Assembly: GCA_965153355.1 (NCBI GenBank)
Contig: OZ231126.1
Coordinates: 43,896,001 to 43,960,000 of the forward strand
Direction of reading: 5' to 3'
From: Flaccisagitta enflata
Lineage: Eukaryota
DNA: 64,000 bases
In this document: piece after piece, positions 5,866 to 38,126 of the stretch
Layout: each line of letters opens with the position of its first letter
How positions within the stretch are numbered: position 1 is the first letter of the stretch
Notes under the pieces: model-generated
Databases searched by the model: none
What the model was told of the DNA's origin: nothing
The model's input: only the letters and a program-made list of their open reading frames with translations
Translations under genes and position numbers: made by a program

Positions 5866-6467
5866 CAGTGGGGTTCGTGGAATAACAGCCTAAACTGGAG
5901 GAAGGTATTTAAGTGTTTTAATTTCATTTGACAAACTTGATATTTGAAATATAAGTTGTTCACTTGATGCTTTTGTCCCTGAGTTTTTCGGTTGCTATGG
6001 AAACCAAAATTATTTTTTTTAAAAGTTATAACAAGTAGAATATTGGTATTTTGACAAATATTATCAGGGAACATTGCTCAAAATTAAATTTGCTACAACT
6101 TTCCCACAGTGTGTCCTGTAAGAATATCGCTCGTTTAGCCGTTGCTAGGGAGCATCATTTAGCAGTTGCTAGGTGTGATGCCCCTTAGCAACGGCCAAAC
6201 GAGCAATATTCTTACAGAACATACTGTGGGAAAGTTGTAGCAAATTTAATTTTGAGCAATGTTCCCTGATAATATTTCTCAAAATATTGATATTTTAGGG
6301 GTTATAAATGTTTGCAAAAATAATTTTGGTTTCCATAGCAACCAAAGAACTCAGGGACAATAGCATTGAGTGAACAACTTATAATTCAAATATAAACTTT
6401 GTCAAATGAAATTAAGACACTTAAATACCTTCCTCCAGTTTAGGCTGTTATTCCACGAACCCCACTG
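5866..6467. mobile_element. 602-bp fully palindromic MITE (CAGTGGGGTTCGTGG termini, TA TSD; Tc1/mariner-type)
   Basis: Arms pair along almost the whole length; second copy at 44048-44648. Confidence 0.93.
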
Positions 6468-6558
6468 TACGGAAAACGATTCTCGTTATCATCATACATT
6501 TTATAGATTTCTGACGACATATTCAAACAAAATTGCACGATTAACATTATTTGCACTC

Positions 6559-8467: not shown

Positions 8468-9123
8468 CTTTTTTCCTTAACATAATCTTATCACAGGCTC
8501 ATCATACGATCAAGTTGCCTTTTTTTTCTCTGGCGTCCGGGATGAGAGAGAGAGAAGGATGAAAAAATTTCCCTCTTCTTTGCTTCTGAATTATCGGTTT
8601 GAGCCTTACTTAGACTCTCTTCAAGCTCCGATACATATTTTATCAGCTCACGTCCGCAACCCAGAAGATATCCGCACTTGTCCGTGTGTCAGTTGGTGGG
8701 TGATGGTGGCGGTGCGAATGGACATACGATAGAACAAGGCCGGATACACGGGCCAAGACGGCGCGCCGAGCGTTATTAATTCATAGCCATCCCTGGCTCC
8801 ATCAGACCTATCCCCAGCTCTATCAGACCATTCCTAGCTCTATCAGACCTATCCCGCCAGGCGTTATTAATCCATAGCTATCCCTAGCTCCATCAGACCT
8901 ATCCCTAGCTCTATCAGACCATTCCTAGCTCTTTAAGACCATTCCTAGCTCTATAAGACCTATTCCGAGCTCTATCAGGCCTCTCCCGAGCTATATCAGA
9001 CCTTTCCCGAGCTCTATCAGACCTATCCCGAGCTCTATCAGACCTATCATCAGCTCTTTCAGACCTAACCCCAGCTCTATCAGACCTATCCTAAGACCTA
9101 TCCGACCTATCACCAGACCTAAC

Positions 9124-9825
9124 TGTTCGTAATTGCGCCGTATTTTGTTTATCCTCTTATCCATCTACAGGAAATCTCGCTAAATTCGTTATTTTTGGGG
9201 TCGCTCCAAAGACTCGTCTTCCTCATCATCCTCCTCCTCTCTCCTCGATTCCTCGTCCTCCTCATCCTCCCTCCTCGTCATCCTCGACTTCTCTCTTCCC
9301 AATGGACTTCTTCTTCCCAAAAGAAAACATTATCAGAATTCTTCGCCATCATTCAAGATCTAATGACTCATTTTAAGATCATTTAGAGATCATTTAAAGA
9401 TCATTTAAAGATTAAAAGACTCATCGCTTCGCCTTTTCATTGCCTCATTGTATTTCTTCTTGTTATAAGATTTCTCTTTTCTCCCCAGTGCAAGCGAGCA
9501 AGCTTCCATTTTTGTATCGTTTCTATAAGACTTTAATATGGTTATTTCGCGCGTTTGCTGTCATCCCCCCCTTCTGGAAATCATTCATCCTCGACTCCTC
9601 AGGTAGTGAGCCTGCTCAATGATGTGGACTGGCCCACTCTTTTCCTATCGGCTCAAACTAATCCTCCCCCCCTTTCTCTTCTCTTTTGTCATTGTAGAAC
9701 TTACAGATCCCTTCATTCTCCAATTCGCGTATTCGTTCTAGCGGGATTCTTAAGACGGAGTTACTCAGCGATCATCAGGGCATCTAGCTAGCTAATGAAC
9801 TGTTCATACGTCACAAACTCGCACA
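9124..9825 (+). repeat. 5' LTR of element A
   Basis: TGTTCGTAATTGCG...AACTCGCACA; two substitutions seen by eye versus the 3' LTR. Confidence 0.97.
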
Positions 9826-10103
9826 ATCTGTAAGTTCTGACAGTTCACTGGCTCCTTCGGTGAAAGCAAGCGAACAACATCCGCCTCCCCCTCCTCCTCA
9901 TCCTTCCGATCACGAAAGAGCTCAAGAACGTTCTCCTCATCATCTTCCTCTTCACTTCCCCTTCCTCCTCATCCTACCAATTACGCTGAAAGCTCAAGAA
10001 CGTTCTCCTCCTCCTCATCTTCCATTACGTCATCCCTCCTCCTCATTCTTCTAACACGGTGAAAGATAAAGAAACCCTATCCTCTTCCTCATCATCCATC
10101 ACG

Positions 10104-12480
10104 ATGGCAGCAAAGTCCCGCGCAGAAAGAGCCAAAATCCTGGAAGATACTTTAAGAAAAATGCCCGACTTCAACGCCTTGATCGTGGCGGCTGACGCCG
10201 GAGCTATCGGCGGAAGCGGCGCCTCGGTAAACACCGCGATGACATCGGACTTTCAAACGGAAAATGACGAGAGGTCTAGAGAAGCGAAGGCAACGGCACA
10301 AACACTAGGATTGCTCGCGCGTTTCTTCGCTTTACGACATGACGATGTACTAAAAGAATTCGCCGGCGTCGACGATCATGACGCACATCAGGCCTTCCTC
10401 GACATCGACGACATGCGCGTCGCGCTCGTGGGAAAGATGTGGCTGTTTCACGAAATGGTCACGAAAAAACTATTTCCCGCCAATACAAAAGAAGACGTTC
10501 ACGGACGAAAATCGGCTGGAAACCATATCAATGTCATCCTAAAAAACTTTTTCCATACGCGCCGCGCATGCCTTTCACAAGAAACATACGACGACCCTGA
10601 TTACGCCCCAGCCCCACCGACAAAAACTGACTTTGTGCAACAACCCGGCAGAAAGCCGGCGCCGTCGGCGACCCCCGGAAAATCGGGGGAAGTCGCGACG
10701 CCATCGGCTACAGATGTGAAAGTAGACAGAAAAACAATTGCTTCTAAAAATGCGAAAAAGGACGAAGAAGAGCAAGATACTGCGACCGAGAAGCCAGACG
10801 GCGCCGACAACGCCGCCGCAAAAGAATCCGGCGCCCTCGAGGAAGACGGCGCCGAAACCGAGGACGATGCCGAGGCAATTGCGACGGAAGAAGAAAATGA
10901 ACGTCTTGAACAGGTTTTGAGAGAAGAAAATGAAAAAAATATACGTCTCAGAGAAGAACTTAAAAATCTAGAAGCTATCCAAGAAATGCAGAAAAAAGAA
11001 CGGCAAAAGAAAAAGAAAAAGAGAAAAACAAGAAAATGTGAAAACAATTCAAGCAAAAAATCAAGAGATAATCGACAAAATTGACAAAATCCAGTACGAA
11101 ATTAATGATGAAGCCGACGAACCTGCGGATGAAAACGAGATCCAAATTTTTGACAACGGCGCTGTCTCGTCTACAAAAAATGATGCGGCGTCATCGCCCA
11201 ATACAGTCGCCGAATCGTGTGCAGACAACGCCGCCGCCCCTGCTGGAAATGGCAAGAAAAAACGCCGTTACCAAATTAAAGAACACCCAAATGCAGCAAA
11301 AGTACCGCCACCAAATTTCCCACCTCTAGGTAATAGCGGCGCCGCGGGAGGTCATGCATCCCCTGCAGCCGTCGCTGTACAGCAGATTGACGCCGCAGCT
11401 CCGAATCAACCCGACTTTTCAAGACTTATCCATACGCTAGAACTTGATGCTGTCAGACGTAACGTTGTAGGCGTACGTCCTTCAGAACCTTTTAAGCAGT
11501 ACGACGCAAAGAAACAGGGCGAATATAACACACTGATGAACATTTTCGACTCGGCATTCGGTAAAATTAACGGCATATCCGGCAATGAAAAAGTCACGGA
11601 ATTATCGGGACATTGGTTCGCCGGCGCCGCAAAAAAAGCTATCAACGCCGCAAAGCCAACAGTTAACGACCCCAATGGAGACGCCGCTTACAAAGAAATA
11701 AGGTGCCATTTGGACAGTATATTTGCCCACGATGTTGATTCCGCCGCCGACGCCCTTAATCGTTTAAAAGAAGGCGGCGCCATCGCAAGGGACAGCCTCA
11801 TTGCACATCAAGATCTGTACATGAACATGCTAGAAGCTCAGAGCTCCGCGTTGACGGTATCCTCGGCGGAGTTGTTTGACAGAAGGAGTAGCCTCCTAGA
11901 GATCATTTCTGCGCGAATACCATTTTATGCAGAGAAATTCTTTGAAGAATACGAACAAGGAGATGGCTTTCAAAAACTTCTCGATTTTGTCCTTACGCGC
12001 ATTAACCTCCTCAAAATCATTCAAATGTCGATAGAACCCGAAACGACTCAAACGGAAGCCGAAGGAATAAAGCATCAGCATCATCTCCACGCTACCGACC
12101 ATCAGACGCAGCATCATTTTGAACAAAATAAAAGCTGCATGTATTGCAAAAACCGTCACGATACATCAAAATGCGATAAACTTTACTGCCTTTCCATAGA
12201 AGACAGAGTAGCAGTAATTTCCACGCTCCATCTCTGTTACCACTGCCTCCGCCCTGGACACAACGCCAGATCCTGTCCAGAAAAGAGGGAAGTCACCTGC
12301 AGCATCTGCAGCAGGAAAGGGCATGTGACGCTCCTTCATGGCAGGCATCTTCTCCACTCTCCCAACGACTCGCCGTATCGTCACCGACGCAACGATTCTG
12401 ACGACGCCGGCGATGACACAAAGTCCGACCTCGAAGCGCTCGAGTCCAACGGAACTGAGGATGAAAATGAATTATGTTGA
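10104..12480 (+). pseudogene. gag: BEL/Pao-type Gag of element A, split by a +1 frame change in an A-rich tract near 11000-11040
   Basis: ORFs 10104-11084 and 11038-12480 overlap. C-terminal triple knuckle CMYCKNRHDTSKC, CYHCLRPGHNARSC, CSICSRKGHVTLLH is typical of BEL/Pao Gag. Confidence 0.85.
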
Positions 12481-12634
12481 GTCGTTGAGAACTTGGACCG
12501 TAATTCTTCGATCTCTCGTTGTACTCGATCTGCTCATCTCCGTCACGCCATTCAACTCCATTCACGCCATTCATCTCCGTCAATCCATTCATCAGTTCCT
12601 TGAATGAAAACAACAATTAAGATCGGCTTTTCTT

Positions 12635-12709
<75 letters not shown>

Positions 12710-12933
12710 GATTACGACTCGCCTCATAAAAAATTACCGCGTTCACTCGACAGAGGTCATCCTAAAAAAGAAAAAAGCTCTCTCGTTTACTGCGACAAAT
12801 TTCATCACTCCCCCCCCCCCCCGTTCACACAAAATTTCATCCTCGTCATCAAAATCCTTATTCCAACTCAACGCCAACGACAATAAAGCCCCGTTACCTT
12901 CAACTTATCCTCAGCCTCATCACATGAACTATT

Positions 12934-13290
12934 CCCGTCTGTCATCTTCCCGTCTGTTATCTTCCCGTCTGTCATCTTCCCGTCTGTCATCTTCCCGTCT
13001 GTCATCTTCCCGTCTGTCATCTTCCCGTCTGTCATCTTCCCGTCTGTCATCTTCCCGTCTGTCATCTTCCCGTCTGTCATCTTCCCGTCTGTCATCTTCC
13101 CGTCTGTCATCTTCCCGTCCCTCATCTTCCCGTCCATCATCTTCCCGTCTGTCAGCTTCCCCTCTGTCATTTTCTCGTCTATCATCTTCCCGTATGTCAT
13201 CTTCCCGTCTGTCATCTTCCCGTCTGTCATCTTCCCGTCTCTCATCTTCCCGTCTGTCATCTTCCCGTCTGTTCATCTTCCCGTCTGTCA
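12934..13290. repeat. 15-bp minisatellite (TCATCTTCCCGTCTG)n inside element A
   Basis: More than 20 tandem copies, homogeneous at the left end and diverging to the right. Confidence 0.95.
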
Positions 13291-14005
13291 TACTCCCATC
13301 TCTCATCTTCTCTTTTTCGCAATAATCAAACTCGCATCATATGAAAACCATCATTTTTACGTTGGAGGCATCTCCGGCGCTTAGTCGGGGTCATCTCCTG
13401 CGTATCTACATCGCCAAAATCTCTCTCTCTCTCTCGAACCGCCTCTTCTATCAACGAAAATCAGACAAAACTAGGCCTACACCTTCGCATATGACTCTCC
13501 ATGTCATATTAAAGAATCACCCTAAAATGCCGCCGTTTCACCTCAACGTCGGCAACAATGTGTCAACTTTATCCTCGGCGTTGTCCCACACCCATCCCTA
13601 GGGTCTCGTCAACATCGTTCCCGCCATCTACTGACATCGCCCCTCAATCTCGCCTTCTGTCATATCCTGTCACCCGTCCTCATCATCCACGTCCAAGTTT
13701 TGTTTCCTTCGACCTGTTCTTTTGACTAAGCGCCAATAATCGAACTCGCATAATATTCACCGGCATCATCACATCCCCCCCTTAATTCGGATCACGACAC
13801 GAAAAAGAAATTCCTCGTTTTGCCATTACTGACGTCAATGCCGTCAATCTCACCTCTTCTGTATCTCATTTCTCATCCTCCATCACGTCCCTAGCATCTT
13901 GTTCCCACAGACTATTCTGATAAAAAAAAAACATTACTCTACGTTGGAGGCATCCCCGGCTCTTAGTCGGGGTAATCTCTTGCGTATCTCCATCGTCTGA
14001 ATCTT

Positions 14006-14080
<75 letters not shown>

Positions 14081-14476
14081 CCCCTCGTTGATTACAACGT
14101 TATTAACCCCCGTTTCACGTCAACGTCAACAATAATGCGTCAACTTTATCCTCGGCTTTCTGCTCGACCTCGCCATCATCATTCCCGCCATCAACATACA
14201 TCCCCCCTCAATCATGCCTTCATGCTTTCATCTCTTCTCACCCGTTCTCATCATCCACGTCCTAGTTCTGTTTTCTTCTGTTTTCTATCCTGGACTTTAT
14301 CGTCAACTCCTATGGACTACTTATCAATCTCGCCTTCATCATTTTCGACCACTCACGTTTTCTTTCCATTCTCATCTTAATCATTCCGCCATCCCCCTGC
14401 CACTCAGTATCATCATTTTACGTTGGAGGCATCTCCGGCGCTTAGTCGGAGTCATATCTGACATATCTCCATCGCC

Positions 14477-14557
<81 letters not shown>

Positions 14558-14805
14558 CTCGCCCTCTCGCTCTCGCTCTCGCCCTCTCGCTCTCGCTCTC
14601 GCCCTCTCGCTCTCGCTCTCGCCCTCTCGCTCTCACTCTCGCTCTCGCCCTCTCGCTCTCGCTCTCTCTCTCGTTATCATATCTCATATCCTCTCATATC
14701 ACATCGTATCATGCCAGGGATGAGTGCCGTCGCCGTTGGCGAACCCGGGAGATTCTGGGGATGCTACGGCAGCAAATGGCAAAACAGATGCCCTGGATCC
14801 TTCTC

Positions 14806-14889
<84 letters not shown>

Positions 14890-15632
14890 AGAAGAAGAAG
14901 AAGAAGAAGCAACCAACAAAGATGTAGTCCTCGTCCGATCCTCGTCATCCTCCTATCCTCATCCTCGTCATCCGTCCCTTCCTCATCCTCGTACAACGCC
15001 GGCGAATGAGCGTCATCCTCCTTCTCCCCCCGCTCCTCATCAAGCCGCCAAGCTAGGATGCAGTCTAGGATGCAGTCTGGCTCAGTTACGCTTATCTCGC
15101 TCTTCCTCCTCGTCATCATCATCATCATCAATCCCCCAACTCTCGATGGCGGAGACGCGCAATGGATCGAGTCGCCAAGGTCGTGGACGAACGCCGGATT
15201 ATCGGCGGAAAATCTGCGGCGAATGCGGCGACAAACCCGAACCCGTTACTACCGCCATCCTCATCCTCTTCTTCATCCCGATCCTCATCAAACCGCCAAG
15301 CCGGGTCCGACGCCGGAATATCGGCGTGAATCTCGGCGAAAGCGGCGACAAACTTATCTTTGACTCGCCCCATTTTCCCGCATTCCTACACGCGTTTTAA
15401 AGACTCATCCATCTCATCATCCTCATCCTTCTCCTCATCTTCTGTATATAGTTTTTTTTTTGATTCCTTTGTGTTTCTTCTTTTGTTCATCGCACATCCC
15501 CTCCCCCCAGTCCACATCATCATAACTATTTTTTAGATTTTTTTTTTCTCGCTTGCACAGTAGTCTTGTTCTCCCCTTAGTCCCCCCCCTTCGAGAAATC
15601 ACTTCATCTGCCATACTGGCAGATCCTGGGGC

Positions 15633-16334
15633 TGTTCGTAATTGCGCCGTATTTTGTTTATCCTCTTATCCATCTACAGGAAATCTCGCTAAATTCGTTA
15701 TTTTTGGGGTCGCTCCAAAGACTCGTCTTCCTCATCATCCTCCTCCTCTCTCCTCGATTCCTCGTCCTCCTCATCCTCCCTCCTCGTCATCCTCGACTTC
15801 TCTCTTCCCAATGGACTTCTTCTTCCCAAAAGAAAACATTATCAGAATTCTTCGCCATCATTCAAGATCTAATGACTCATTTTAAGATCATTTAGAGATC
15901 ATTTAAAGATCATTTAAAGATTAAAAGACTCATCGCTTCGCCTTTTCATTGCCTCATTGTATTTCTTCTTGTTATAAGATTTCTCTTTCCTCCCCAGTGC
16001 AAGCGAGCAAGCTTCCATTTTTGTATCGTTTCTATAAGACTTTAATATGGTTATTTCGCGCGTTTGCTGTCATCCCCCCCTTCTGGAAATCATTCATCCT
16101 CGACTCCTCAGGTAGTGAGCCTGCTCAATGATGTGGACTGGCCCACTCTTTTCCTATCGGCTCAAACTAATCCTCCCCCCCTTTCTCTTCTCTTTTGTCA
16201 TTGTAGAACTTACAGATCCCTTCATTCTCCAATTCGCGTATTCGTTCTAGCGGGATTCTTAAGACGGAGTTACTCAGCGATCATCAGGGCATCTAGCTAG
16301 CTAATGAACTGTTCATACGTCACGAACTCGCACA
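15633..16334 (+). repeat. 3' LTR of element A
   Basis: Same length and near-identical sequence to 9124-9825. Confidence 0.97.
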
Positions 16335-18349
16335 CTAACCGACCTATCCCCAGCTCCATAAGACCTAACCGTAGCCGATTATATTAGTGAATGAAATGAC
16401 GAGTATCATTTATGATGAACGAAATGAGTTTTCTATTGATTTCAAACGTTTTTAGCGATTTTTTACTCGAGCGTGACCGACGGATGGACGGACGGACGGA
16501 CAGAGCTTCTCATAGAGACGCTATGGCGCATCTAAAAATCATCCTAGCATATTTCTGAATCATTTCCAGTGATTTTTGCTTCTTTTCGAGATTTTCAACT
16601 CGAGCGTGACCGACCGACCGACCAACCAACAGACAGAGCCTCTCATAGAGGTGCTATGGCGCACCTAAAAATGCCATGGGAGGTTCACTGGCAGTTACTA
16701 GACCGCCGCGAATCTTGGACCAATAGATATCTATCATTTCATCATAACAGCATACATTAGAAATGCAATAATTTGAACATCTGATAATCAAAATTCATGA
16801 GCATGATCATGGAAAAATAAAACTTAATAGACAGAGTGCATGAACAAAAAACACTTAAAAGATTGAATGCTATTAACCGCCATTAATCTAAGACCGACAA
16901 TTTGGGACGTCCGCGTCCCTCATTCGCGTCCCTCGCCGTTTGTCCATAGAGGTGTGGTGTTCATCTAACTCTTGCCTATCCTAATTCTGAGAATATCTTC
17001 ATGTACGTGTTTCTCTTTTGTACGGCTGTGGTTCCATATGCACTTTTTGTCTTTGACTCTGTGTTTCTGTTTGTACAATGTGTACAATGTCCATGTGTTC
17101 AGTTCCGGTACAAATTTGCCAATAGATTCTCCATATACAATGACGTCAATTACTGTTTCTATTTCATTCCTTATCTCTACTAACTCTTTCATCAATTATC
17201 AGTCGAACGCTGATGCCGTGAGGAAAATGTCCCAGAAACTTTTCCGTTCATCCTTTGTTTTCCCTCTTTATCATTTATTAATAAAAAAAAATCATATAAT
17301 ACATAATGGCGCAAACACGCTTCTGAAATGTTATCAACGGCTGTGGAGTGTCTCGCACGTAAATACGTCAACCCCGGTCTCGATCTATCTTACCACCTTG
17401 TCCATTTTTCATCCCTTTAACAACGGCTTTGACCTACATCTCCGCGATCACGAGTATTTATGATGTCCCTCGCACGTGACCTTTGCTGCATTAACCCTCA
17501 TTTCCACATTCTTTATATCGTGTTGATTCCGCCATCCACCATTTAGTCATACGACCCGTACATTTTGATTGAATGATCTTCTTCTTATCAACCATTACCA
17601 AGTCATGCTAACTTCCGTCAACCATACATTTTTCTAGGGGGGAGAGTAAGGAAAGGAGGTCCTTTTAGACCCATTTACCAACTTTTTTCCCTTTCGCTTA
17701 AACACATAGGGTGTAACATTGAAGACAATTCAGGTCTTGTTTTCGGCATTTCACTGCAAAAAAATCAATGTTTGTTTCTGAAAATTTACCTTATTTAATT
17801 CGATTTATTTATTTTCCAGTGTCGACGTTGCATCCCTTTCTGTACTTTCGGCTATCCACATTCTTTGCTGTTAGCGTTTGCCCCCAACCAACTCCCCCTT
17901 TCTACTCCCCCTCCCTTCAAAGCTAAGCTACTATTCTACTTGTTTCCCATTCCGGGGCCTTTTGTCTTTCTCTCCTCGTTCGTTGGTCGGTGGCAAGTGA
18001 GTGACAGAAAACGGAGTCTTTGACATATTTCCTCCCATATATTCTCGCGTTCTCCTCCCCTTTACCCCCCCCCCCGCCTTGCCCCCACCCCAATCATATC
18101 ATGAGCTTCCGCCGACCCACCTCCCTACTGACTTTTCTTATTTCTTTTTTCTTCTTTTCCTTTTTCTATTCATTAATTCGTTTATTCATTCATTCATTCA
18201 TCCATTAATCCATTCATTTATTCATTCATTCATTCAACATCTATTCATCTTCTTCCTTTCTTTCTCTTTTTTTCCTTCTTTTTTAAAAGATGTGGTTTTT
18301 GCTCTCTATTTTACGTTTGGCTTTTAATTATGCCTTTCCCACTCCCTCA

Positions 18350-19668: not shown

Positions 19669-20690
19669 TATTCCCTGTCACTACTACCGGGAAGTTTCCG
19701 GGAATTTTTTAGGCCATTCCCACAAATTTCCTGTCAACTTCCCTTTAAATTCCTACTGTTTTTCATAATTCCCGGAAATTGATAGGAAGTTTGGGAAAAC
19801 ATTGGGAAGTTAGAGGGATGTCTAAAAAATTTGTGGGAAGTTAGTGGGAAGTGTTAAAGAACAGTGGGAAGTTAGTGGGAAGTTAGTAGGAAGTTCAAGT
19901 AAATAATGAGAAGTAAGTGGGAAGTATAAAAGAAATTGTGGGATATAAGTGGGGTATGTATAAAACAGAGTTAAGTTAGCGGGAAGTTAAGGTGAATAGT
20001 CGGGAGTCAGTGGGAAGTTAAAAAAACAGTGGGAAGTTAGCGGGAAGTTTAGGTAAATAATGAGAAGTATGTTGAAAGTTTTGAAAAAATTATGGGAAAT
20101 TAGTGGAAAATGTAGAAAACAAAGGGAAGTTAGAAGGAAGTTAAGGTAGATAGTAGGAATTAAGTGGGAAGTATAAGAAAATAATGGGAAATGTTTGGGA
20201 AATGTAATAAAATAAAGGGAAGTTAGTGGGAAGTTTAAGTAAAAAGTGGGAAATTAGCGGGAAGTAAGAAAAAATGATGGGAAATGTGTTAGAATTGTAA
20301 TAGAATAGTGGGAAGTTAGTGGGAAGTTTTGGAAGATAGTGGGAAGTAAGTGGGAAGTATGAGAAAACAGTGGGCAATTAGTACGAATTGTAAAATTGCA
20401 GTAGGGTGCTAGCAGGAAGTTTGAGTAGATAGTGGGATGTATGTGGGAAGTATGAGAAAATAGCGGGAAGTTAGGGAGTTATGTAGAAATTAGGTAAGAG
20501 ATGTGGGGAAATAGTGGAAAAATAATGGGAACAATAAGAAAATAGTGAGCAATCAGCGGAAAGATCAAGAAATTTTGGATTTGGGACAATCAATCTTTTA
20601 TAGTATTCCCTGTCACTACTACCGAGAATTTTTTGGGAATTTTACGGGGTATTCCCAACAAATTTCTCTGGAAAAGTAGTACGCTAAACA
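19669..20690. repeat. Element built of degenerate GGGAAGT(TAG) units; head TATTCCCTGTCACTACTACCG repeated at 19669 and 20604; related piece at 39650-39857
   Basis: Dozens of GGGAAGT motifs on one strand; 39841-39857 resembles the reverse complement of the head. Confidence 0.65.
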
Positions 20691-20988: not shown

Positions 20989-22790
20989 AAAATTAAAATT
21001 TTTTTTTTTCGCTTATGTTGGATTTTCCTTTAATAAGTTTTATTTAGCATGAGATCTGTTTTTTTCATTTAGATTCATCAGCTTAGAAAGATAAATGCCT
21101 TTCTAGTTAAGCTCCACTAGTTTTTAGCTGGATGGAAGATGCGTAACAGCAAGGGAGCAGCAAAGGGGGGAGGGCTAGGGGGGCCCCGCGGTAGCTCTCA
21201 AGCCTTTTTTCAGTGATGCTAATTAAAAAATCAATTCATAAAATCCAATAAAATCATGCATCTATTCTTTCTTTCTAATTGCTGAACAAGAATAAATAAA
21301 GATGATCTGTTATACTTAGCAAAAAATGAATTCTTTTATATGTATCCGTCACTGTCTGCTAATCCTTCTGTCCGCTGATCCTTCTGTCTCGCAATTCATC
21401 TAAAATGCTTTCACAAAAATCGCCTAAACTCGTTCAGTCTTTCTGTCTCTGTCTTCTGTCTCACACACACATACACACACACACACATGCACACACAGGA
21501 TAAAAACACCTTCAATGTTAGCTAGATTCTTTTAAATTATCACAACTAATAGGGATACAGCTGTTTTGAGGTAATATTATATATAATTGGTCAGGCCCAC
21601 TGTTTTTCTGTTGGGCCAGGTAAGATTGTAGGGAGCAGGCCGGATTGGCTTGCTCAAAAAAATCATTTTTTAGGGTTTAGCGGGAATTTTAAAAAATAAA
21701 AGGAAGTTAGTGAATAGTTTGGGTTTACTGGAATGTAAATGGGAAGTATGAGGAAATAGGGGGATATTAGTGGGAACTGTAAAAAAATAATGAAAGGTTA
21801 GCAAGAAGTTTAGTGCTTATAATAAAAAAAGTGTAGGCTACTGTCATAAAAAAACTTGACATAACAGTATTGTATTTTGCCCCCTGTTTTTCTATCGGGC
21901 CCGCAAAAATTGTGAGGAGCGTGCCCAGAAGGCCCACTGAAAAAAATAAATATTTTGAGGCCTGAATATGAAATATGAATTCAGGGAACTTTTTGGGAAA
22001 TTTCAGGGAAATTTCTGGGAATTTCTTCAAAAAATTCGCGGCAATTACGCTGTGTGTCGCCCTCATCCAATATGTTAGAGACGATAATGCAAAAACTGCT
22101 CGCAACTTAGAAATAGTTCCTACCGACCTACCAACCGGCACGGCAAGGTGTTGAGTTGTGTGTCCGCGACTAAAAATGATACTAGGAATTTGAGGGAGGA
22201 CGCCAAATCGTTAGGAAAGCTTCAATTTTTAGTCGCGTGCACGCGACTTTACAACCTGCTTTGTCAGTTGGTCGGTCGGTTGGTCACGTTTTATTTTTTT
22301 TTTATGATTTTATTTCTTTGACCTCACTACTCCTGCCCAAATGGTCTAGTGACCTCAAATATGGCTCCTGCCCACCCGCACGCGACTTCGGTAGCCGTGT
22401 ATCCGGCCTTGTTTCTCTCGCTCTCGCTCTCGCTCTCGCTCTCGCTCTCGCTCTCCGCTCTCTCTCTCTCTCTCACACGCCATTTACAACTTTGTTGCCA
22501 TGTCTAGAGCTGCCTTGATCGGTAAAGACTTTAAGTTAACCATACAAACTGTACGATCATCTCCTATTCGGCAGCATGCTGCAGCATGGAAAAGAAAAGG
22601 GTCATAGATTTTCGTTTTAAGGAATAGAGCGAGGAAACATTTCCTCCACAGTTATTTTTTCTTCTTTTACTCTTTATTTTTTATTTTTTTAATTTCTTTG
22701 AAACCAGTGTGATAAGATAAACCAGCGAACTACCAATTGGGATGAACGCCTCCGAGATCGGTTGGTTTATGTGGATCACTCAAGATGACA

Positions 22791-22886
<96 letters not shown>

Positions 22887-22926
22887 ACGCTCAAGTTGGA
22901 AAGTACAGAGAGCTCAAGTTGGAAAG

Positions 22927-23064
<138 letters not shown>

Positions 23065-26190: not shown

Positions 26191-26439
26191 AGAAGGACAC
26201 ATCAAAAACAAGAGCAACAACGAAACAAAAAAAAAAAAGACAAATGGAATTTGATATTTGCCTGGTATTTTTTACATGACTGTTTCAATTTTGTTTCATT
26301 CATGAATGTTTTTTAAAATCTGAGGAACCTAATCTCATGATCTCATGAATATCTTTGCGAATACTTCATCCTTTGATCACTGCAAAACCGCCATGACAGA
26401 ACTATGTTATAAAGCACAGGTCGCGACTGTGCTGCACAG

Positions 26440-29355: not shown

Positions 29356-32110
29356 TATTCCATGGGAATTTCATATTTTTTTCATTTTTCATCAATTTTC
29401 CATGTTATTCTATGGGTAGTTTGCAATTTATCAATTTTCCATGTTATTTAATGGGAAATTGAGGCTTGAGAAGCTGGGGGGATGGACGTGCGGACGGACG
29501 GACGGACATTTGGAAATTCACCCCTGTGTCCTACAAGGGTTCAAGTTGAGAGAATTTCTAACATTCTGTATTGATTGCGTTTGTTGTTTTTTCGTCGCTT
29601 TTTTCTTATCTTTTGTCCCTTTTTCGACATTTCCTGATAGTCATAGGTGTGTCTTACTATATCTCTACCTATACATCGTCAGTCGGTCTGTGGTGATCGA
29701 GTTGGAAAGCGTGAAAATGTGCACTTCCGTCCCTGCCCACCCGTCTGCGGCTGATATTGGCCCTTGTTTCTGTTCATGTCCCAAACGACTAAGAAATGAT
29801 GACTTCAGAACAAATTCAAAGATTACAATTTAGGACACAGTTTATTTGAACGACAAACTCGGTCTATCAGTTTTTTATAACTTTAAGTTATTAGAATAAT
29901 AAATAAATAAACTCATAGATAGTTTGTTAAGTCCAGAACTATAGTTTTTAATACTACAAAATTATAATTCAGCAGTATTTTACATCTGCATATATGTAGA
30001 ACATACCTTAGATAATTATCAAAAGAACAATATTTATAATTGAAAATATGATAGATGAACGAATAGACAAATGAATTAATAGAAAGATTAAGATAGCAAA
30101 ATCATTTTGTTTGTCGGAGTCTAAAAATAATGATGAAATTAATCATTATTATTAGTGTGTAAACTATTAAAAAATTATAATGATATTGTATTATGAAATG
30201 AATAAAACAATCTATTAAATTCATACATTTCTAAAAAAAGATCTAATCTAAAACATATTTCAAGTGAAATTATGAAGCCCTTTAGTTCAATAATATGTAA
30301 AAAAATATAAATTAGAAATGCTAGTTTTTAAAATTAAAAACAAATAAAATAATCTATTTTTAGAATCTTATTTTTAGTCGCGGACACGCGACTCTACACC
30401 TTGCCGTGTCGGTCGGTAAGCCAATAGGTCGGTCCGTCCGTTTGTCCATCCGTCCGTCCGTCCGTCCGTCCAAGCGGTTTTCGCATCACTGCTCCTGCCC
30501 AACCGTCCGCGACTGGATTGCCGTGTACCTGGCCATGTTAAATGATATTTGATTTTTTAAAATCTTTAACCTTAAAAAAATCGGGTAATTTGTATTTAAA
30601 TTTCTATAATTTTTAACTCTAATTAAATCTTGCCTCGACCCTCAAATTTTACCTCTCGTTTGCATCTTGACTTAGATTAAGTTACAGCGAATGAGCTTCT
30701 TAATTCTATATAAACCGAAAGTGAGAGAGAATCTTGAATAAACCGAAAGTGAGAGAAATAGAGAGAGAACAAGGCCGGATACACGGGCCAAGACGGTGCG
30801 CCGGGCGTTATTAATTCTTAGACCTATCCCTAGCTCAATCAGACCTATCCCTAGCTCTATCAGACCTATCCCTAGCTCTATCAGACCTATCCCGAGCTCT
30901 ATCAGGCCTATCCCGAGCTCTATCAGACCTATCCCTAGCTCTATCAGGCCTATCCCGAGCTCTATCAGACCTATCCCAAGCTCTATTAGACCTATCCCGA
31001 GCTCTATCAGACCTATCCCGAGCTCTATCAGACCTATCCCCATACCTATCTGACCTATCACCAGACCTATGCGACCTATCCCCAACTTGATCAGACCTCA
31101 ACTTAGCTGATTATTTTGGTGAATGAAATGAATTTTTGTGAATGAAATGAATTTTGTGAATGAAATGAACGAAATGAGTTTTCAATTGATTTCAAACATT
31201 TTCAGCTAATGAAATAAATGAATGAATGAATGAATGAATGAATGAATGAATGAATCAATCAAGGAATGAATGAACGAATGAACGAATGAATGAATGAATC
31301 AATCAATCAATGAATGAACGAATGAAGGAATGAATGAATGAATGAATTTATGAATGAATGAATTTATAAATGAATGAATGAATTTATGAATGAAATGAAT
31401 TTTAGTGAATGAAATGAATTTCATTGAATGAAATGAATTTTAGTGAATGAAATGAATTTTAGTGAATGACCTCAATGTAGCTGATTGTTTTAGTGAATGA
31501 AATGAATTTTAGTGCATGAAATGTATTTCAGTGAATGAAATGAACGAATTGAGTTTTCAATTGATTTCAAACATTTTCAGTGAATGAATGGAATGAATGA
31601 ATGAATGAATGAATGAAATGAATGAATGAATGAAATGAATGAATGAAATGAATGAATGAATGAAATGAATGAATGAATGAAATGAATGAATGAATGAAAT
31701 GAATGAATGAATGAAATGAATGAATGAAATGAATGAATGAAACAAATAAATGAAATGAATGAATGAAATAAATAAATGAAACAAATAAATGAAATGAATG
31801 AAATGAATGAAATGAATGAAATGAATGAAATGAATGAAATGAATGAAATGAAATGAAACGAATGAAATGAAATGAATGAAATGAATGAAATGAAATGAAA
31901 CGAATGAAATGACTGAAATGACATGAAATGACATGAAATGAATGAAACGAATGAATGAATGAAATGAATGAAATGAATGAAATGAATGAAATGAATGAAT
32001 GAAATGAATGAATGAAATGAATGAATGAAATGAATGAATGAAATGAATGAATGAAATGAATGAATGAAATGAATGAATGAAATGAATGAATGAAATGAAT
32101 GAATGAAATG

Positions 32111-32607
32111 TGTGAGATTGCGACATGGTTTCCTGCCGCCAGTTCACGCTTTTGGCGATTGCTTGTCTATTTAGCTTAGCGTGAACACGTCCTTTTTCTG
32201 CCTAATTTGCATGTTGAGGCGTGTGGAAAATGAGAACTTCCATTGTAATTCTACATCGCCGCCAATGTGTCTATTTTGTTTAAGTAAAATAAATTAATGA
32301 AAGTTTGCCACCACACCTCTCACAAAAAGGCTCTAAATTGAACAAGAAAAAGGAAAAAATTAATACATGACCCCACAGTTGAGACAATACGAGACCAAAA
32401 CGATAAAAACGATGCAATAACGATAAAACGACGCGAAAACGATAAAAATACAAGGAAAAAAATGATAAAAAACGCGCACATATCCCCAGCAGCGAAGCAT
32501 CGATAAAGAATAAAATCAACTCCGTAAGACTACGGACGGAAAAAATCAAAAAGGGCAATGCATGCGACAAAAAATGGAAACAAAAAACAAAAGACGCATT
32601 TCCAAAA
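32111..32607 (-). repeat. 3' LTR of element B
   Basis: Near-identical to 37335-37831. Confidence 0.95.
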
Positions 32608-34909
32608 CTCCCGGCCAATTTTTTAATTTAAAAAATTTTTTCCCAAAAAAGTTTCGAGAGGGGGGCAAAATCTAAGGATAGCATAAAAACAAAGAAAAAT
32701 TGGGGGAGATCGAGTAAGGATGGGGACACACAAACGAAAACAGCACACACCACCCGCGCATTCCCCTGGGGACGAAGGGTGCTACTGCTCTGCAGCTTGC
32801 TCAATAGACAAACACCCCCTTCCCGTCTCACTCGACCATGCTACCCAAAGGACAAAATTGGCGACTAAACTACAGCTAATACAATGACAAATTAATATAA
32901 CGATTCAGATGGTATGTTAATGAGACGCACCCCTACCCCCATCAAGACCCACCACCCACCGTCTACAGGGCCAGCACCCAATCACCGACCAAGGTGGCGC
33001 CGCTGCCTTAGGCTCGGTTCCAGCTTATGCCATTATCAACGTTACCGTCGACGATGAACCAGCAGCTTCACGGCGGCCTTGGGGCCTTGTTGCGCAACTA
33101 CCAGGACAGTGAAAGAAAAAGACAGGAACCAACCCTCGCCCTTAGTGGACCGACCCAAGGGATATGACCAACGACTAACGACCAAATGAGGCCTGAAACA
33201 TAACCACACAGGCCACATCCACGCCTGGGGAAAAATGGTAGCCTGCCCAGGGGCCCGCCCAACAAGACAGGAAGGCGAGGAACTCAATAAGGGGCAATAC
33301 AACGCACGCCTCTTTTCATCTTTCCCTTGAAAACCTCACCCCCCACTCAACAAACGTGTTAGTACCCCAACCACGACGCTGTCCGGGAGCATAATCACTC
33401 GCGAGTGGAAGAGGCTTCTTTTTGTTGAGATCTAGGGATCATTGAGTAGACATGGGCTGCTGCCAAATTGACAATCGACTTCATCGCCCGCACGAAAGAG
33501 TCAATTCCACAATGGCCGCCAAAACAAGACATAAGAGAGCCGGCGTTGAGGAGAATTTACCTAGTTAAGACGGGGATAGGGGGGGGGGGAAGGGGGGTTT
33601 GGGACCTTGTGGTATTTCCAGACAGGGGAACATGACCGGAAATACATCAGGGATTAAAAACCAGCAATGATAAGAGATACTACACCTAAAATAAATAATT
33701 AAAGTCAGCCAACGTGTAAATGTCACGTTAAGAATAGATAGAAATAAAAAATGCGCAAACGCAAAACGAACAACGAAATCACGTGCTAAAAACGCGAAAC
33801 GCAAAACGAAATTGACCAAAAATACCAATCAATGACCAGTAATAAATAATGTTACAATAATAATGCATAAAAATGATAAAAAGGCGCAGCCAAAAAACGA
33901 CAAAACCATCCCTTATCCCCTACCCATTGGGTAACAAATCACAAGCGATAAAAACAGAAGAAACCAAAAGAGAAAAGGAGACAGAGCGAAACGGAGCAGG
34001 GAAGAGAAAGAGTCAAAGGGAGCAGGGAAGAGAACGAAAGAACACAAGAGAGGCAAAAACGAGAAGGAAAAAAGAAAGGAGAGACCGAGAGAGAGAATGA
34101 GAAAGAGAACGAGAACGAGAAAGAGAACGAGAGAGAGAACGAGAGAGAGAACGAGAAAGAGAACGAGAAAGAGAGCGAGAGAAACAACAAAACAGAACGA
34201 GAAACAGAACGAGAGAAACAACAAAACAGAACGAGAAACAGAACGAGAGAGAACAAAAACACTACGCAAAACAAAACAATGCCCATCACCTAAAATGATG
34301 ATGAGAAAGAGCGTGGAAATCGACTTTCGGAGATTCCTCTGCTTCTTTAATCCCATCGAACGTCGAGAGACGTAGCCAGTGGAGGAGGAGGAGGAGGAGA
34401 AGACGGAGGAAGGGAGAATGATCGGCGCCATCTTTGAAAGGAGTCGAGACGACGAGTGCCGCCATCTTTCTTCCTGCGTGGGCCGGAAGTGATCACGGGC
34501 GCCCTCCAGCAATTGAAAAAACCGTCCGGAAGCAACTGTTGGGTGAATACAAAGAAAACACGCAAACAGAGGACGTAAAAACGTTATCAAAACACTAACA
34601 GATAAGGGGCGGGAAAAGAAAGGGCTATGCATTGAAACGATTTGACTCAGTGCAACATGGTCAAGCAATCCTCAATGTCAATCACTCTTTCAATTAAACT
34701 TATCCGTTTTAGAAGTGTCGATATGGAACACATAAAAATGCATTCCATCGCCAAAATCCAAAATCCAGCTGTCAAAGGCCCCTCCACCGGACAAATGGAA
34801 GACTTCAAGGAGCTGGGGACGCGTCTGTTTGCAATCACGTGACTTGTATGGACATGAAGGCGCATTTGCGGAAGTGAGGCAAGAAGGGTAGATTGGATGG
34901 TAAAATAAC

Positions 34910-36937
34910 TCATTGATTAAAATTCCGGCCGTGAAGGATCGTTGCGTGGCCTCGGCCGCACATTTGACACGTTGGCTTATTGTCGCAGTATTTGGCCGTG
35001 TGGCCCTTCACAAGGCAATGGTAGCAGAGTTCACGCTTTGACAAAATGTCCACCCTTGAGTCGACGGAGACTTCTATCAAAATGGGGCACTGGGAGGTAG
35101 GGTGGGGATGGCCACAAACCCCACACACCGTCACATGTTCGTCGGGTGGCATTTGCCCACATTTCCTTTTAATTATTGCCCATCGCTCCACCAGCTCTAC
35201 CAAATTACGGTAGTCATAGCTTCCGCGGCCACTCATTTCCGATTCAAAGTTTTCCGTCCAAAATTTGTCGGCGAGATGAGGGAGTCGATTATTGAGGATG
35301 AGACGAAGTCTGTTATCGTTATGACACACCTCTTCCTCTCCACACACCATCGCCACCTTTTCAGCCTTCAGCAATTCCGCGTATAGGAGAAAGTGGGCCT
35401 TGTAATCATGCTCTGCGATTGGAGGAGCGGATGCAATTCCATCAAGCAGTGCGCCAACTGTACTTGAGTCCCCTTGGAATATCGTGTCCATCCGTTTAAA
35501 GCACTGCCCCAACTCAAAGGCGGCAGTTTCTGCTGTCACGCCAATTGTCGCCGTCATGATGACATCAGATACAGGGCCACTAAACCAATGTGGTAACTCC
35601 AAAATCATGTCCATTTCCGTAATTCCCTTGTTATTTGCTGCCTCCAGAAATCTCCGTTTCACGACAATGTAGTCTGCAGGCGTCAATGACTGGTATGGAG
35701 TTCTTGGTCGCGCCTTTTCCAAGTTCCTATAACCAATTTCCCGCCATCTAATGAAATTGTCCGCATGGGATGCTGTAATGAATTTCCCAATGGCACCATC
35801 TAGCGAGACTGTTGAGGGTTGGTGCGCTAAACCCTGCCGTGCCGCATGGGAACCCGTTTGGCGCCGCGTTAAAGGAGATGAAGGAGGAAGAGGAGAATGA
35901 AAGTGGTGTTCATCGATAGATTGAGATTCGTTGACCCCTGCAGCCATCTGTTGTCTCGGCGGTTGTTGTTGGTAACCACCACCAAACGCTGACCGCCGCT
36001 GGGGCACATAGTCTTCCTTTACGATTGTACCACGTAGTGGAGGCGGAGGAGGAGGATTGGAAGGATGGTGATGAATTTGTGTCGTCTGAGGTTCATGGTG
36101 ATCTGTGACTGTCGGACGTTCCTGGGATGGTTGCTGATGTCGATAACCACCACCGACTACTACCAACTGCTCGTGATCTCCACCCACCTGCCTGACGATC
36201 TCACCATCACCATTCGCAGTTCTAGCAATCTGATCCCCCTCGATTCGATATTGCCGCTGATGGTGCTGCTGACGAGCTTGTTGAGACACCGGAGGTTGTC
36301 GATGATGGTGCTGTTGAAGCTGCTCGTGTACCGGCTCTCGCGTTGTTTCTTCCGAAGAGAAATGTTGCATCGGCCTAACATCCCGCTGCTCAAATGCGCC
36401 ATCTAATTCACCTCGGTTCTGGTCGTCCCAACTCATGCGTCGCAATGCCTCGTCAACCGCTTCCGCATCAAAACCCAATTTATGGGGGGTACATCGGCAA
36501 TATTTAAGAATTCCCTCCGTTGTCGGGAATTTATCGGAGTACAAGTCTGTTGCGAAAAATTTCATCTTTGCCCATTTGCTACGCACAGTTTTCAGGCTAT
36601 TTGCAGTGTACGTCCACAAATCGTATGCATCGTCAAGCTCGCCTGATTTCGAAATGTCGTTGGTTTTGGCGAGGTAACGATAAACGATTCCTTGAAGGCC
36701 GTCGCGCGCAAAATCTGAATCTGCCGCTGCCATTTCATCTTCGGGGTTGATGGCCGCGTTATTAAAGGCCATTTGAGCCTCATTTAAGGCCGCTACCACA
36801 TTTGCCCGCATCTCGCGCAACTCGATGATACGATCATGTTGGCAACCCGCAAAGTATGATGCCAAAGACGAAATTGAGGTGTTGTGTACACCCCTATCAA
36901 CCATCGTTGTCGACGGAACAGACATTCTAGCGTCCAT
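34910..36937 (-). CDS. gag: Intact BEL/Pao-type Gag of element B, 675 aa
   Basis: Uninterrupted ORF with knuckles CGVCGHPHPTSQC, CYHCLVKGHTAKYC, CQMCGRGHATILH. Aligns by eye with Gag A (ELPHWFSG vs ELSGHWFAG; RLPHLADKFW vs RIPFYAEKFF). Confidence 0.93.
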   Translation of the reverse strand: MDARMSVPSTTMVDRGVHNTSISSLASYFAGCQHDRIIELREMRANVVAALNEAQMAFNNAAINPEDEMAAADSDFARDGLQGIVYRYLAKTNDISKSGELDDAYDLWTYTANSLKTVRSKWAKMKFFATDLYSDKFPTTEGILKYCRCTPHKLGFDAEAVDEALRRMSWDDQNRGELDGAFEQRDVRPMQHFSSEETTREPVHEQLQQHHHRQPPVSQQARQQHHQRQYRIEGDQIARTANGDGEIVRQVGGDHEQLVVVGGGYRHQQPSQERPTVTDHHEPQTTQIHHHPSNPPPPPPLRGTIVKEDYVPQRRSAFGGGYQQQPPRQQMAAGVNESQSIDEHHFHSPLPPSSPLTRRQTGSHAARQGLAHQPSTVSLDGAIGKFITASHADNFIRWREIGYRNLEKARPRTPYQSLTPADYIVVKRRFLEAANNKGITEMDMILELPHWFSGPVSDVIMTATIGVTAETAAFELGQCFKRMDTIFQGDSSTVGALLDGIASAPPIAEHDYKAHFLLYAELLKAEKVAMVCGEEEVCHNDNRLRLILNNRLPHLADKFWTENFESEMSGRGSYDYRNLVELVERWAIIKRKCGQMPPDEHVTVCGVCGHPHPTSQCPILIEVSVDSRVDILSKRELCYHCLVKGHTAKYCDNKPTCQMCGRGHATILHGRNFNQ

Positions 36938-37334
36938 TGGAAACTGGCGCGATAACGTTTTTAGAGTCCATTTTGCTTGGACTTTTTCACTTGCTTAGTC
37001 TACGCATCACCCGTCGGTTTTAGCTCGCAGAAAAATGGACCGGGTTCGCTACCACCGACCATGTCAAAATTCAGCGTCAGTTAAGCATCACCCGTCGGTT
37101 TTTAGCGCGCAAATAAACAGGTTCGCTACCACCAGACGCCAAATGCACTTGGGGAAAAGCACAATGTATCTCGACGTTAAAAGGACGATTCGTCGACGCG
37201 TAAATTCTCTCATTGACATCACGTCCCGGCGCCCCGGCGCCATAGGCCGTCACTTAGCATGACAGCATCCCGGGTCAGGGCAGGGGACACGAATAGACGA
37301 GTGAAGACGGCGTCGATTTTTTAATTTATTTTAC

Positions 37335-37831
37335 TGTGAGATTGCGACATGGTTTCCTGCCGCCAGTTCACGCTTTTGGCGATTGCTTGTCTATTTAGCT
37401 TAGCGTGAACACGTCCTTTTTCTGCCTAATTTGCATGTTGAGGCGTGTGGAAAATGAGAACTTCCATTGTAATTCTACATCGCCGCCAATGTGTCTATTT
37501 TGTTTAGGTAAAATAAATTAATGAAAGTTTGCCACCACACCTCTCACAAAAAGGCTCTAAATTGAACAAGAAAAAGGAAAAAATTAATACATGACCCCAC
37601 AGTTGAGACAATACGAGACCAAAACGATAAAAACGATGCAATAACGATAAAACGACGCGAAAACGATAAAAATACAAGGAAAAAAATGATAAAAAACGCG
37701 CACATATCCCCAGCAGCGAAGCATCGATAAAGAATAAAATCAACTCCGTAAGACTACGGACGGAAAAAATCAAAAAGGGCAATGCATGCGACAAAAAATG
37801 GAAACAAAAAACAAAAGACGCATTTCCAAAA
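37335..37831 (-). repeat. 5' LTR of element B
   Basis: Reads TTTTGGAAATGCG...CAATCTCACA on the minus strand; one substitution seen versus 32111-32607. Confidence 0.95.
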
Positions 37832-38126
37832 AAATGAATGAATGAAATGAATGAATGAAATGAATGAATGGAATGAATGAATGAAATGAATGAAATGAAT
37901 GAATGAATGAAATGAATGAATGAAATGAATGAATGAAATGAATGAATGAAATGAATCTTAGTGAATGAAATGAATCTTAGTGAATGAAATTAATCTTAGT
38001 GAATGAAATGAATCTTAGTGAATGAAATGAATTTTAGTGATTGAAATGAATGAAATGAGTTTTCAATTGATTTCAGACATTTTCAGCAAGTTTTCATTCG
38101 AGCGTGACCAACGGATGGACAAACCT

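Follow-up and report, generated by a model that had tools for sequence, protein, structure and literature searches.

A conserved hairpin and short G-rich spacer before the 3′ LTR of two gag-only relatives of BEL/Pao elements, and their possible role in plus-strand priming

Two LTR elements and their affiliation

The window, that is the whole stretch of 64,000 nucleotides of DNA that was analysed, contains two complete LTR elements, A on the + strand and B on the − strand (Table 1). In both, the two LTRs are near-identical repeats and the element is bordered by perfect target-site duplications of 5 bp. A and B are therefore recent insertions, the LTR boundaries of which are well fixed. B is inserted inside a 13-bp satellite, and removal of one copy of the duplication restores the period of this satellite. 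Base 15632, just before the 3′ LTR of A, also matches the 5′ flank of the element, because it is the same base as the last one of the target-site duplication. Neither a third element nor a solo LTR is found in the 64-kb window.

Table 1. Features of elements A and B. Positions are those of the window; features of B lie on the − strand, and motifs are written on the element strand.
Feature	Position	Strand	Remarks
A, target-site duplication, 5′ copy	9119..9123	+	CTAAC, identical to 16335-16339
Element A	9124-16334	+	7,211 bp
A, 5′ LTR	9124..9825	+	702 bp, TG..CA; 2 mismatches with the 3′ LTR
A, putative self-primer site in the LTR	9696..9708	+	LTR positions 573-585; perfect reverse complement of 9826-9838
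A, U5 arm of the U5-leader stem	9796..9803	+	TGAACTGT
A, putative primer binding site	9826..9838	+	first 13 nt after the 5′ LTR; no tRNA-type TGG start
A, leader arm of the U5-leader stem	9840..9847	+	ACAGTTCA
A, gag-like coding region	9990..12477	+	two overlapping frames (9990-11081, 10972-12477); only the second is related to B gag
A, conserved word CCTTAG	15575..15580	+	after a pyrimidine run
A, C-run and TCGA	15582..15594	+	C-run (15582-15589), one T, TCGA (15591-15594)
A, perfect hairpin	15606..15624	+	ATCTGCCA-TAC-TGGCAGAT; 8-bp stem, 3-nt loop
A, G-rich spacer	15625..15632	+	CCTGGGGC; 8 nt, CTGGG at −7..−3, then GC; likely 3′ part of the plus-strand primer
A, 3′ LTR	15633..16334	+	opens with TG at 15633
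A, target-site duplication, 3′ copy	16335..16339	+	CTAAC
B, target-site duplication, 3′ copy	32106..32110	−	CATTT
Element B	32111-37831	−	5,721 bp
B, 3′ LTR	32111..32607	−	497 bp, TT..CA; 1 mismatch with the 5′ LTR
B, G-rich spacer	32608..32616	−	GGCCGGGAG; 9 nt, CCGGG at −7..−3, then AG
B, perfect A/T hairpin	32617..32637	−	9-bp stem, 3-nt loop AAT
B, C-run and TCGA	32654..32665	−	C-run (32665-32660), TC, TCGA (32657-32654)
B, conserved word CCTTAG	32672..32677	−	after a pyrimidine run
B, gag-like ORF	34913..36994	−	694 aa, Cys/His-rich C-terminus
B, putative primer binding site	37321..37334	−	first 14 nt after the 5′ LTR
B, 5′ LTR	37335..37831	−
B, putative self-primer site in the LTR	37508..37521	−	LTR positions 311-324; 37334-37321 pairs with 37521-37508
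B, target-site duplication, 5′ copy	37832..37836	−	CATTT

In each element, a long 5′ ORF terminates in a Cys/His-rich motif. The two gag products are distant homologues, 29% identical over 307 residues (E=7e-26). When searched with a profile built from the A/B gag family, a library of 1.84 billion yielded 12,448 proteins, and seven long matches were scanned with Pfam. Four of them (P0133, P0146, P0149, P0156) carry DUF1759, Peptidase_A17 (Pao), DUF5641 and integrase-type domains, P0146 and P0156 also matching RVT_1. A fifth carries DUF1759 and part of Peptidase_A17, while two are without a Pfam match. Neither A nor B directly matches DUF1759 itself; both gags of the window match the gag part of a DUF1759/Pao-type polyprotein profile (E=1.7e-29 and 1.3e-22). 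An atlas look-up of gag likewise points towards retrotransposon Gag families. On the side of pol, no long ORF of A or B has any Pfam match, be it to a reverse transcriptase, a protease or an integrase, and the gag-pol profile has no match anywhere in the 64-kb window. Thus, A and B are gag-only, non-autonomous derivatives related to BEL/Pao elements. Their LTRs (702 and 497 bp), their lengths (7,211 and 5,721 bp) and their short target duplications fit the ranges given for BEL/Pao elements in the ICTV profile (LTR 0.2-1.2 kb, element 4.2-10 kb; PMC8742986).

Apart from gag, little is common to the two elements. No nucleotide similarity between A and B extends beyond CT-rich low-complexity runs, and no second conserved protein is found in them on either strand. 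Sense ORFs downstream of gag were considered as possibly shared and rejected, the ORFs of A and B being unrelated. The A/B gag profile found no relative among viral contigs and genome contigs, nor did the gag-pol profile among viral contigs. The junction word had 0 matches in the genome contig collection. An LTR-internal 20-mer had 2 matches among metagenome contigs, both by chance in unrelated coding-like sequence.

The module upstream of the 3′ LTR

An earlier note on this DNA had reported, before the 3′ LTR of both elements, a perfect hairpin followed by a G-rich spacer of 8-9 nt. The hairpin and the spacer are confirmed in both, and the likeness claimed for stem length (8-9 bp), loop (3 nt) and spacing is borne out, the LTR starts being fixed by the repeats and the target duplications. 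On the strand of element B, the hairpin (32637-32617) leads to the spacer (32616-32608) and then to the LTR, from 32607. In both elements the 3′ arm of the hairpin directly adjoins the spacer (at 15624/15625 in A and 32617/32616 in B), so that the hairpin ends 8 nt (A) or 9 nt (B) before the LTR. When counted back from the LTR, the two spacers have in common C-Y-G-G-G at −7 to −3, then two letters (GC in A, AG in B). The purine run begins at −5 in both, and the run abutting the LTR is only 4 nt long in A and 5 nt in B. The word CCTGGGGC occurs a single time in the 64-kb window; GGCCGGGAG has one exact occurrence there, its one-mismatch matches being in a 20-bp satellite or scattered. Elsewhere inside the elements, the spacer words do not recur. 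The B spacer presumably resembles the complement of a tRNA arm, a likeness that is not used in the argument.

The order of the blocks is the same in A and B: CCTTAG, C-run, TCGA, hairpin, G-rich spacer and 3′ LTR. The C-run followed by TCGA that the earlier note had pointed out upstream of both hairpins is indeed specific to them, since the only 2 exact matches of CCCCCCNNTCGA in the 64-kb window are those upstream of the two hairpins, each on the element strand. As for CCTTAG, the idea that it ends a shared ORF was rejected, A and B agreeing in the last codon before the stop only. In A, the 19 nt upstream of the spacer are of mixed composition; in B, T6 and A6 runs lie inside the hairpin.

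Perfect hairpins with a stem of at least 8 bp and a loop of 3 nt are rare. The 64-kb window has five of them, including those of A and B, for about 1.8 expected from first-order Markov simulations. Only 0.3% of the window positions have a hairpin with a stem of at least 8 bp and a loop of 3-7 nt ending 5-12 nt upstream. It may be imagined that unrelated hairpins lie by coincidence near two LTR starts, as the B hairpin is made of A/T only in an A/T-rich low-complexity setting and the window holds 131 perfect hairpins of this broader type (stem of at least 8 bp, loop 3-7 nt, repeat-borne ones included). However, with all 45 distinct hairpin ends taken into account, the joint positional chance for both junctions still amounts to about 9e-6, and loop size, flanking motifs and 9 of 19 letters are also common to the two hairpins. 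Coincidence is hence hardly credible; the pre-LTR module is real.

The alignment of the 19-nt hairpin cores, 9 columns of which are identical, makes the absence of sequence identity asserted in the earlier note too strong a statement. Among the 8 aligned stem pairs, 4 are invariant and 4 are changed on both sides, with 0 one-sided changes and 0 broken pairs. This comparison is one of two elements (n=2). A shuffle control gave 28/500 and is weak, its floor with only two sequences being about 1 in 16.

The 3′ end of A (14900-16450) was also compared with reads from two DNA runs of the host organism and one marine metagenome. With a word depth in the thousands, family A belongs to the highly repeated sequences of the host genome, and many contigs are only 80-95% alike. 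Among the 40 listed of 223 substitution entries, none falls within 15574-15704, a quiet stretch flanked by well-supported substitutions at 15566, 15571, 15573 and 15705; the indels listed within it are small only, at 15636, 15639 and 15656. These read data hint that C-run, hairpin, spacer and LTR start are conserved in family A. The contigs of several A subfamilies stop near 15610, and further ones start at 15630, which may mean that the interior of the hairpin varies among A copies.

The predicted stabilities of the two hairpins are not alike. As RNA, the A hairpin has an energy of −10.1 kcal/mol at 37 °C. That of B reaches only −1.4 kcal/mol at 37 °C and −4.75 kcal/mol at 15 °C, for −4.1 kcal/mol at 37 °C as DNA, where it forms a 10+1+10 palindrome. 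Both stems are pure Watson-Crick, with 0 G-U pairs, which suits a palindrome at the DNA level no less well than a structure in RNA. In A, pairing of the C-run with the spacer can enclose the hairpin (z=−1.9); the wider region of B folds no better than shuffled sequences (z=+0.4). A has no LTR-spanning inverted repeat of at least 6 nt, and the only such pair in B is A/T-rich and 9 nt long, one arm of it being about 61-69 nt into the LTR. No long-range complement of the module is shared by the two elements, A having none of at least 9 nt and B only A/T runs. Finally, no Rfam family is found, the one match obtained (E=0.18) being far below threshold.

Complementarity between the LTR and the leader

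In both elements, the sequence that directly follows the 5′ LTR matches, as a perfect reverse complement, a site within the LTR, over 13 nt in A and 14 nt in B. Matches as long were obtained for 5 of 2000 random 45-mers of the window in the case of A, and for 5 of 1968 in the case of B, where 32 draws overlapping B's own LTRs were left out. Moreover, both observed complements start at position 1 after the 5′ LTR. In the minimum-energy fold of A, self-primer and binding site are paired over all 13 nt, and a perfect 8-bp U5-leader stem, extended in the fold, comes directly after the binding site. In B, a GGCGGCG/CGACGCC duplex lies beside the binding site (z=−3.1), and the central duplex, made of A/U only, is absent from the minimum-energy fold. 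A TCATT word begins 12 nt (A) or 3 nt (B) upstream of the self-primer site, which is located 6 nt past the end of TCATT in A and overlaps its final TT in B. We take this word to resemble an initiator. No TGG-initiated site of the tRNA type adjoins either 5′ LTR, and the 64-kb window contains 0 tRNA genes.

Such an arrangement is reminiscent of self-priming, which characterises the Tf1/sushi group within Ty3/gypsy (PMC10085805; PMC3601003). The ‘pretzel’ of these elements comes from the work of Levin and of Lin and Levin (summarised in PMC10085805). A and B resemble it by the perfect complementarity of the post-LTR site to an LTR site (13 and 14 nt) and by a predicted adjacent U5-leader duplex. 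They differ from it in that self-priming is described for Ty3/gypsy chromoviruses, whereas the gag relatives of A and B are fused to a Pao-type, not a gypsy-type, pol. Considering these features, the minus strand of the A/B lineage seems to start by Tf1-like self-priming, the LTR site being the putative 5′ end of the RNA. This process concerns the minus strand and not the site of the hairpin. For BEL/Pao elements, no report of self-priming was found among the titles and abstract openings surveyed.

The sequences at the 5′ end bear on two other accounts of the module. In the first one, it would be an RNA-processing signal, with CCTTAG as a 3′ splice acceptor or another signal of the 3′ UTR, or else a DNA-level site, the palindrome being bound by a dimeric protein. 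A pyrimidine run does precede CCTTAG in both elements, and GTAAGT or GTAAAA occurs within 5 nt after both 5′ LTRs. However, these donor-like words fall within the 13-14 nt that pair with the LTR and are thereby otherwise explained. A host RNA run gave 83 reads on the 3′ end of A, all partly fitting, mostly less than 90% alike and leaving the LTR without cover, among which no splice joint is readable. The pure Watson-Crick palindromes, of which that of B is firmer as DNA than as RNA, would suit a protein site. With only 9 of 19 letters in common they are nevertheless poor candidates for the site of one protein, and no such site precedes the 5′ LTR, the promoter-active one. A processing signal or a protein site is thus considered quite unlikely.

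In the second account, the hairpin would be a functionless by-product, for instance a palindrome made over and over by template switching close to the primer site, or an incomplete copy of the primer binding site. Some resemblances go in this direction. The A hairpin opens with the first 5 letters of the A primer binding site, the 3′ arm and spacer of A share CAGATCC with the self-primer site, and 13 letters are common to the B hairpin and the B primer-binding region. Perfect stems without G-U pairs would also be the expected product of a copying mechanism. However, the likeness to the primer binding site sits in the 5′ arm in A but in the 3′ arm in B; it covers only 5-7 nt in A and is low-complexity in B. 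That two old lineages agree in stem length, loop and spacing, and have left 4 of 8 pairs unchanged, rather indicates descent with constraint, and a by-product is considered highly improbable.

A possible role in plus-strand priming

Plus-strand priming is the least varied step in textbook descriptions of LTR-retroelement replication, the purine tract resisting RNase H. According to the earlier note, A and B would have no ordinary polypurine tract. This was overstated with regard to published cases, as the tract of BEL/Pao elements is about 10 nt long (PMC8742986) and an 8-nt G-rich primer is known in Ty1/copia (PMC2829016). The ICTV profile assigns BEL/Pao elements an 18-nt binding site for tRNA-Arg/Gly together with this tract and, in the part of the text available, mentions no hairpin (PMC8742986). 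A and B resemble these Belpaoviridae by their LTR and element sizes and, less clearly, by a short tract upstream of the 3′ LTR. They depart from them in showing no tRNA-type site and in having a purine run of only 4-5 nt at the LTR.

In the explanation that we put forward, hairpin and spacer, together with CCTTAG, the C-run and TCGA, would form a conserved 3′ cis-acting replication module of a gag-only BEL/Pao-related lineage. The spacer would be the plus-strand primer, or contain its 3′ part, as a very short G-rich tract, only partly made of purines, with the core C-Y-G-G-G at −7 to −3, separated from the LTR by a 2-nt attachment dinucleotide. Placed at the 5′ side of this primer, the hairpin would be used by the reverse transcriptase/RNase H of a partner element to delimit or select it, acting either as RNA or as minus-strand DNA. 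Its role would parallel that of the inverted-repeat arm in Ty1/copia and of the T-rich box in retroviruses and Ty1. The enzyme of the partner may already recognise RNA duplexes, as would be expected if the minus strand starts by Tf1-like self-priming. That the relationship of A and B is old (29% gag identity) and that 8 of 8 pairs have yet been kept counts for such an involvement of the hairpin. On the other side, the precise setting of the 5′ border of the primer is not an established requirement. That the hairpin helps define a short plus-strand primer is therefore proposed tentatively, with a likelihood that we place a little short of even. The earlier note had spoken of a structure-defined priming signal. 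What stands of this is an architecture conserved despite 29% gag identity and a pairing kept through 4 double changes. The hairpin might, as the note also suggested, position RNase H cleavage; the low predicted stability of the B hairpin as RNA argues against a purely RNA-structural role.

A different function is conceivable for the same sequences. The module could be a recognition, packaging or dimerisation signal, by which the particles or the reverse transcriptase of an autonomous BEL/Pao partner pick up the gag-only RNA in trans, its place beside the primer being incidental. Since pol is absent in both elements, cis signals needed by a partner must be kept, and the conserved block reaches about 50 nt past the needs of a primer. 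Palindromic hairpins also serve retroviral dimer initiation (as cited in PMC5445492). Against these points, the loops TAC and AAT are not self-complementary, the module has no shared long-range complement, and this account does not explain why the distance to the LTR start is nearly the same in both elements. Besides, packaging and dimer signals are usually found in the 5′ leader. A signal acting in trans is accordingly regarded as unlikely.

A broader view may be considered, in which nucleic-acid structure, in place of a match to a tRNA and a long purine tract, sets both primers of reverse transcription. Synthesis of the minus strand would begin with self-priming of the Tf1 type, and that of the plus strand from a G-rich stub of 5-9 nt, measured from the hairpin by the same duplex-recognising RNase H. 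We find this combined view rather doubtful, though its consequences would be wide. Tf1-like self-priming would have its first case outside Ty3/gypsy chromoviruses, and a third LTR superfamily would show that RNase H can be made specific for structure in place of sequence. Such a lineage would be a natural system for the minimum length of a plus-strand primer and for what sets its borders. Finally, elements of this kind would be missed or mis-oriented by annotation tools that search for long purine tracts and for binding sites of the tRNA type.

Close parallels to the preferred reading, a hairpin that helps define the primer, are found in Ty1/copia. In Sireviruses and about half of the classic Ty1/copia elements, an inverted repeat borders the terminal PPT (Bousios et al. 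2010, PMC2829016). There, an 8-nt G-rich primer is followed by 2 nt and then TG, and the arm of the inverted repeat ends exactly at the 5′ border of the primer (PMC2829016). A and B have the same succession of short G-rich primer (as proposed for the spacer), 2-nt dinucleotide and LTR, as well as a pairing arm ending where the primer begins, and in both systems the arrangement is kept across very divergent elements (PMC2829016). However, the partner arm of copia elements is located 18-28 bp inside the 3′ LTR, which places the primer in the loop, whereas in A and B both arms are upstream and the primer is outside the hairpin. Further differences are that the copia cases are Ty1/copia elements of plants and A and B belong to the BEL/Pao type, and that the clustered identical primer copies seen before the 3′ LTR of Sireviruses are not found in A and B (PMC2829016). 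What is new with respect to copia is thus a local hairpin with the primer outside it, short G-rich primers themselves being already known. For BEL/Pao, no local hairpin wholly upstream of the primer and abutting it was found in the portions of the literature searched.

Hairpins at LTR junctions have been encountered elsewhere. The GalEa copia elements of fungi have a Conserved Hairpin Site, a 9-bp hairpin the function of which was inferred from conservation only (PMC5445492). As in A and B, a conserved hairpin there replaces or accompanies a canonical priming signal at the LTR junction. The GalEa hairpin occupies the position of the primer binding site, immediately behind the 5′ LTR, and that of A and B stands before the 3′ LTR; superfamily and kingdom are also different (PMC5445492). 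A systematic search for primer-associated hairpins was urged by Benachenhou et al. (PMC3601003).

A determinant directly 5′ of the primer for the plus strand is in itself familiar. A T-rich box, or a conserved TCTT, lies directly upstream of the PPT in retroviruses, Ty1 and the fission-yeast Tf elements (PMC10085805), and plus-strand synthesis of Ty1 and retroviruses requires sequences just upstream of the primer (as cited in PMC10085805). A and B would share this position of the determinant, with a hairpin instead of a sequence motif. The A hairpin is not T-rich; in B, the T and A runs of the hairpin could, by analogy, act partly as a T-rich box.

Putative self-priming signature at the 5′ LTRs

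In the two gag-only BEL/Pao-type LTR elements of the window, A on the forward and B on the reverse strand, the sequence that begins with the first base after the 5′ LTR is perfectly complementary to a site within the LTR itself. The match extends over 13 nt in A (9826-9838, with 9696-9708) and over 14 nt in B (37321-37334, with 37508-37521, minus strand). No tRNA-type binding site was found after the 5′ LTR of either element. Taken together, these features form a signature of putative self-priming, a minus-strand start of the Tf1 type where the 5′ end of the RNA pairs with the site directly following the 5′ LTR. From the intra-LTR complement sites, R would start near LTR position 573 in A and 311 in B. 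Splice-like words also occur just past the 5′ LTR and upstream of the 3′ LTR (table).

Pre-LTR block and internal sequences of element A

The C-run block preceding the 3′ LTR of A has a 26-nt echo in U3, CCCCCCCTTC..GAAATCA.TTCATC, at 16073-16098. Its score was equalled by 0/300 shuffles. A comparable U3 echo is absent from B (59/300 shuffles in the same test).

The gag region of A consists of two overlapping frames, 9990-11081 and 10972-12477, the first of which (364 aa) showed no similarity to the gag of B or to Pfam. This arrangement may reflect a frameshift or an intron, or the first frame may be an unrelated ORF. In the 3′ region, an antisense ORF with a clean ATG start (15131-15385, minus strand; MGRVKDKF...) is observed, with no conserved counterpart in B. 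Element A also carries a 15-bp tandem array of about 34 copies (12842-13351), one reading frame of which gives weak pentapeptide-repeat matches.

Satellites and other repeats

Both A and B are hosted by satellites. To the right of A, at 16356-16450, DNA sequencing runs from this species give word depths of 0.5-0.7 million. Elsewhere, a dispersed repeat may correspond to a small non-autonomous transposon. A 610-bp segment (5859-6469) matches a distant copy (44041-44650) in both orientations and is thus itself palindromic. Simple repeats are very abundant across the window.

Coordinates of splice-like words, the U3 echo copy and repeats
Feature	Position	Remark
GTAAGT or GTAAAA, splice-like, just past 5′ LTR	A 9830-9835; B 37334-37329 (-)	from sequence
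Pyrimidine run + CCTTAG, splice-like, ~55 nt upstream of 3′ LTR	A 15575-15580; B 32672-32677 (-)	from sequence
26-nt echo, 5′ LTR copy	9564-9589	element A
21-bp repeat around A	8728-9121, 16335-16450	recurs at 30.8 kb (30763-31098)
13-bp repeat around B	31525-32110, 37832-38086	
Dispersed repeat, ~200 bp	506-632, 22226-22421, 42166-42367, 56513-56705, 63402-63598	both orientations, 73-90% identity
Inverted pair, 430 bp, 8 kb apart	44649-45077, 52517-52951	adjoins 610-bp palindromic segment
Long (GA)n microsatellites, 20-bp and 31-bp tandem arrays	22750-23200, 26404-26977, 19774-20483
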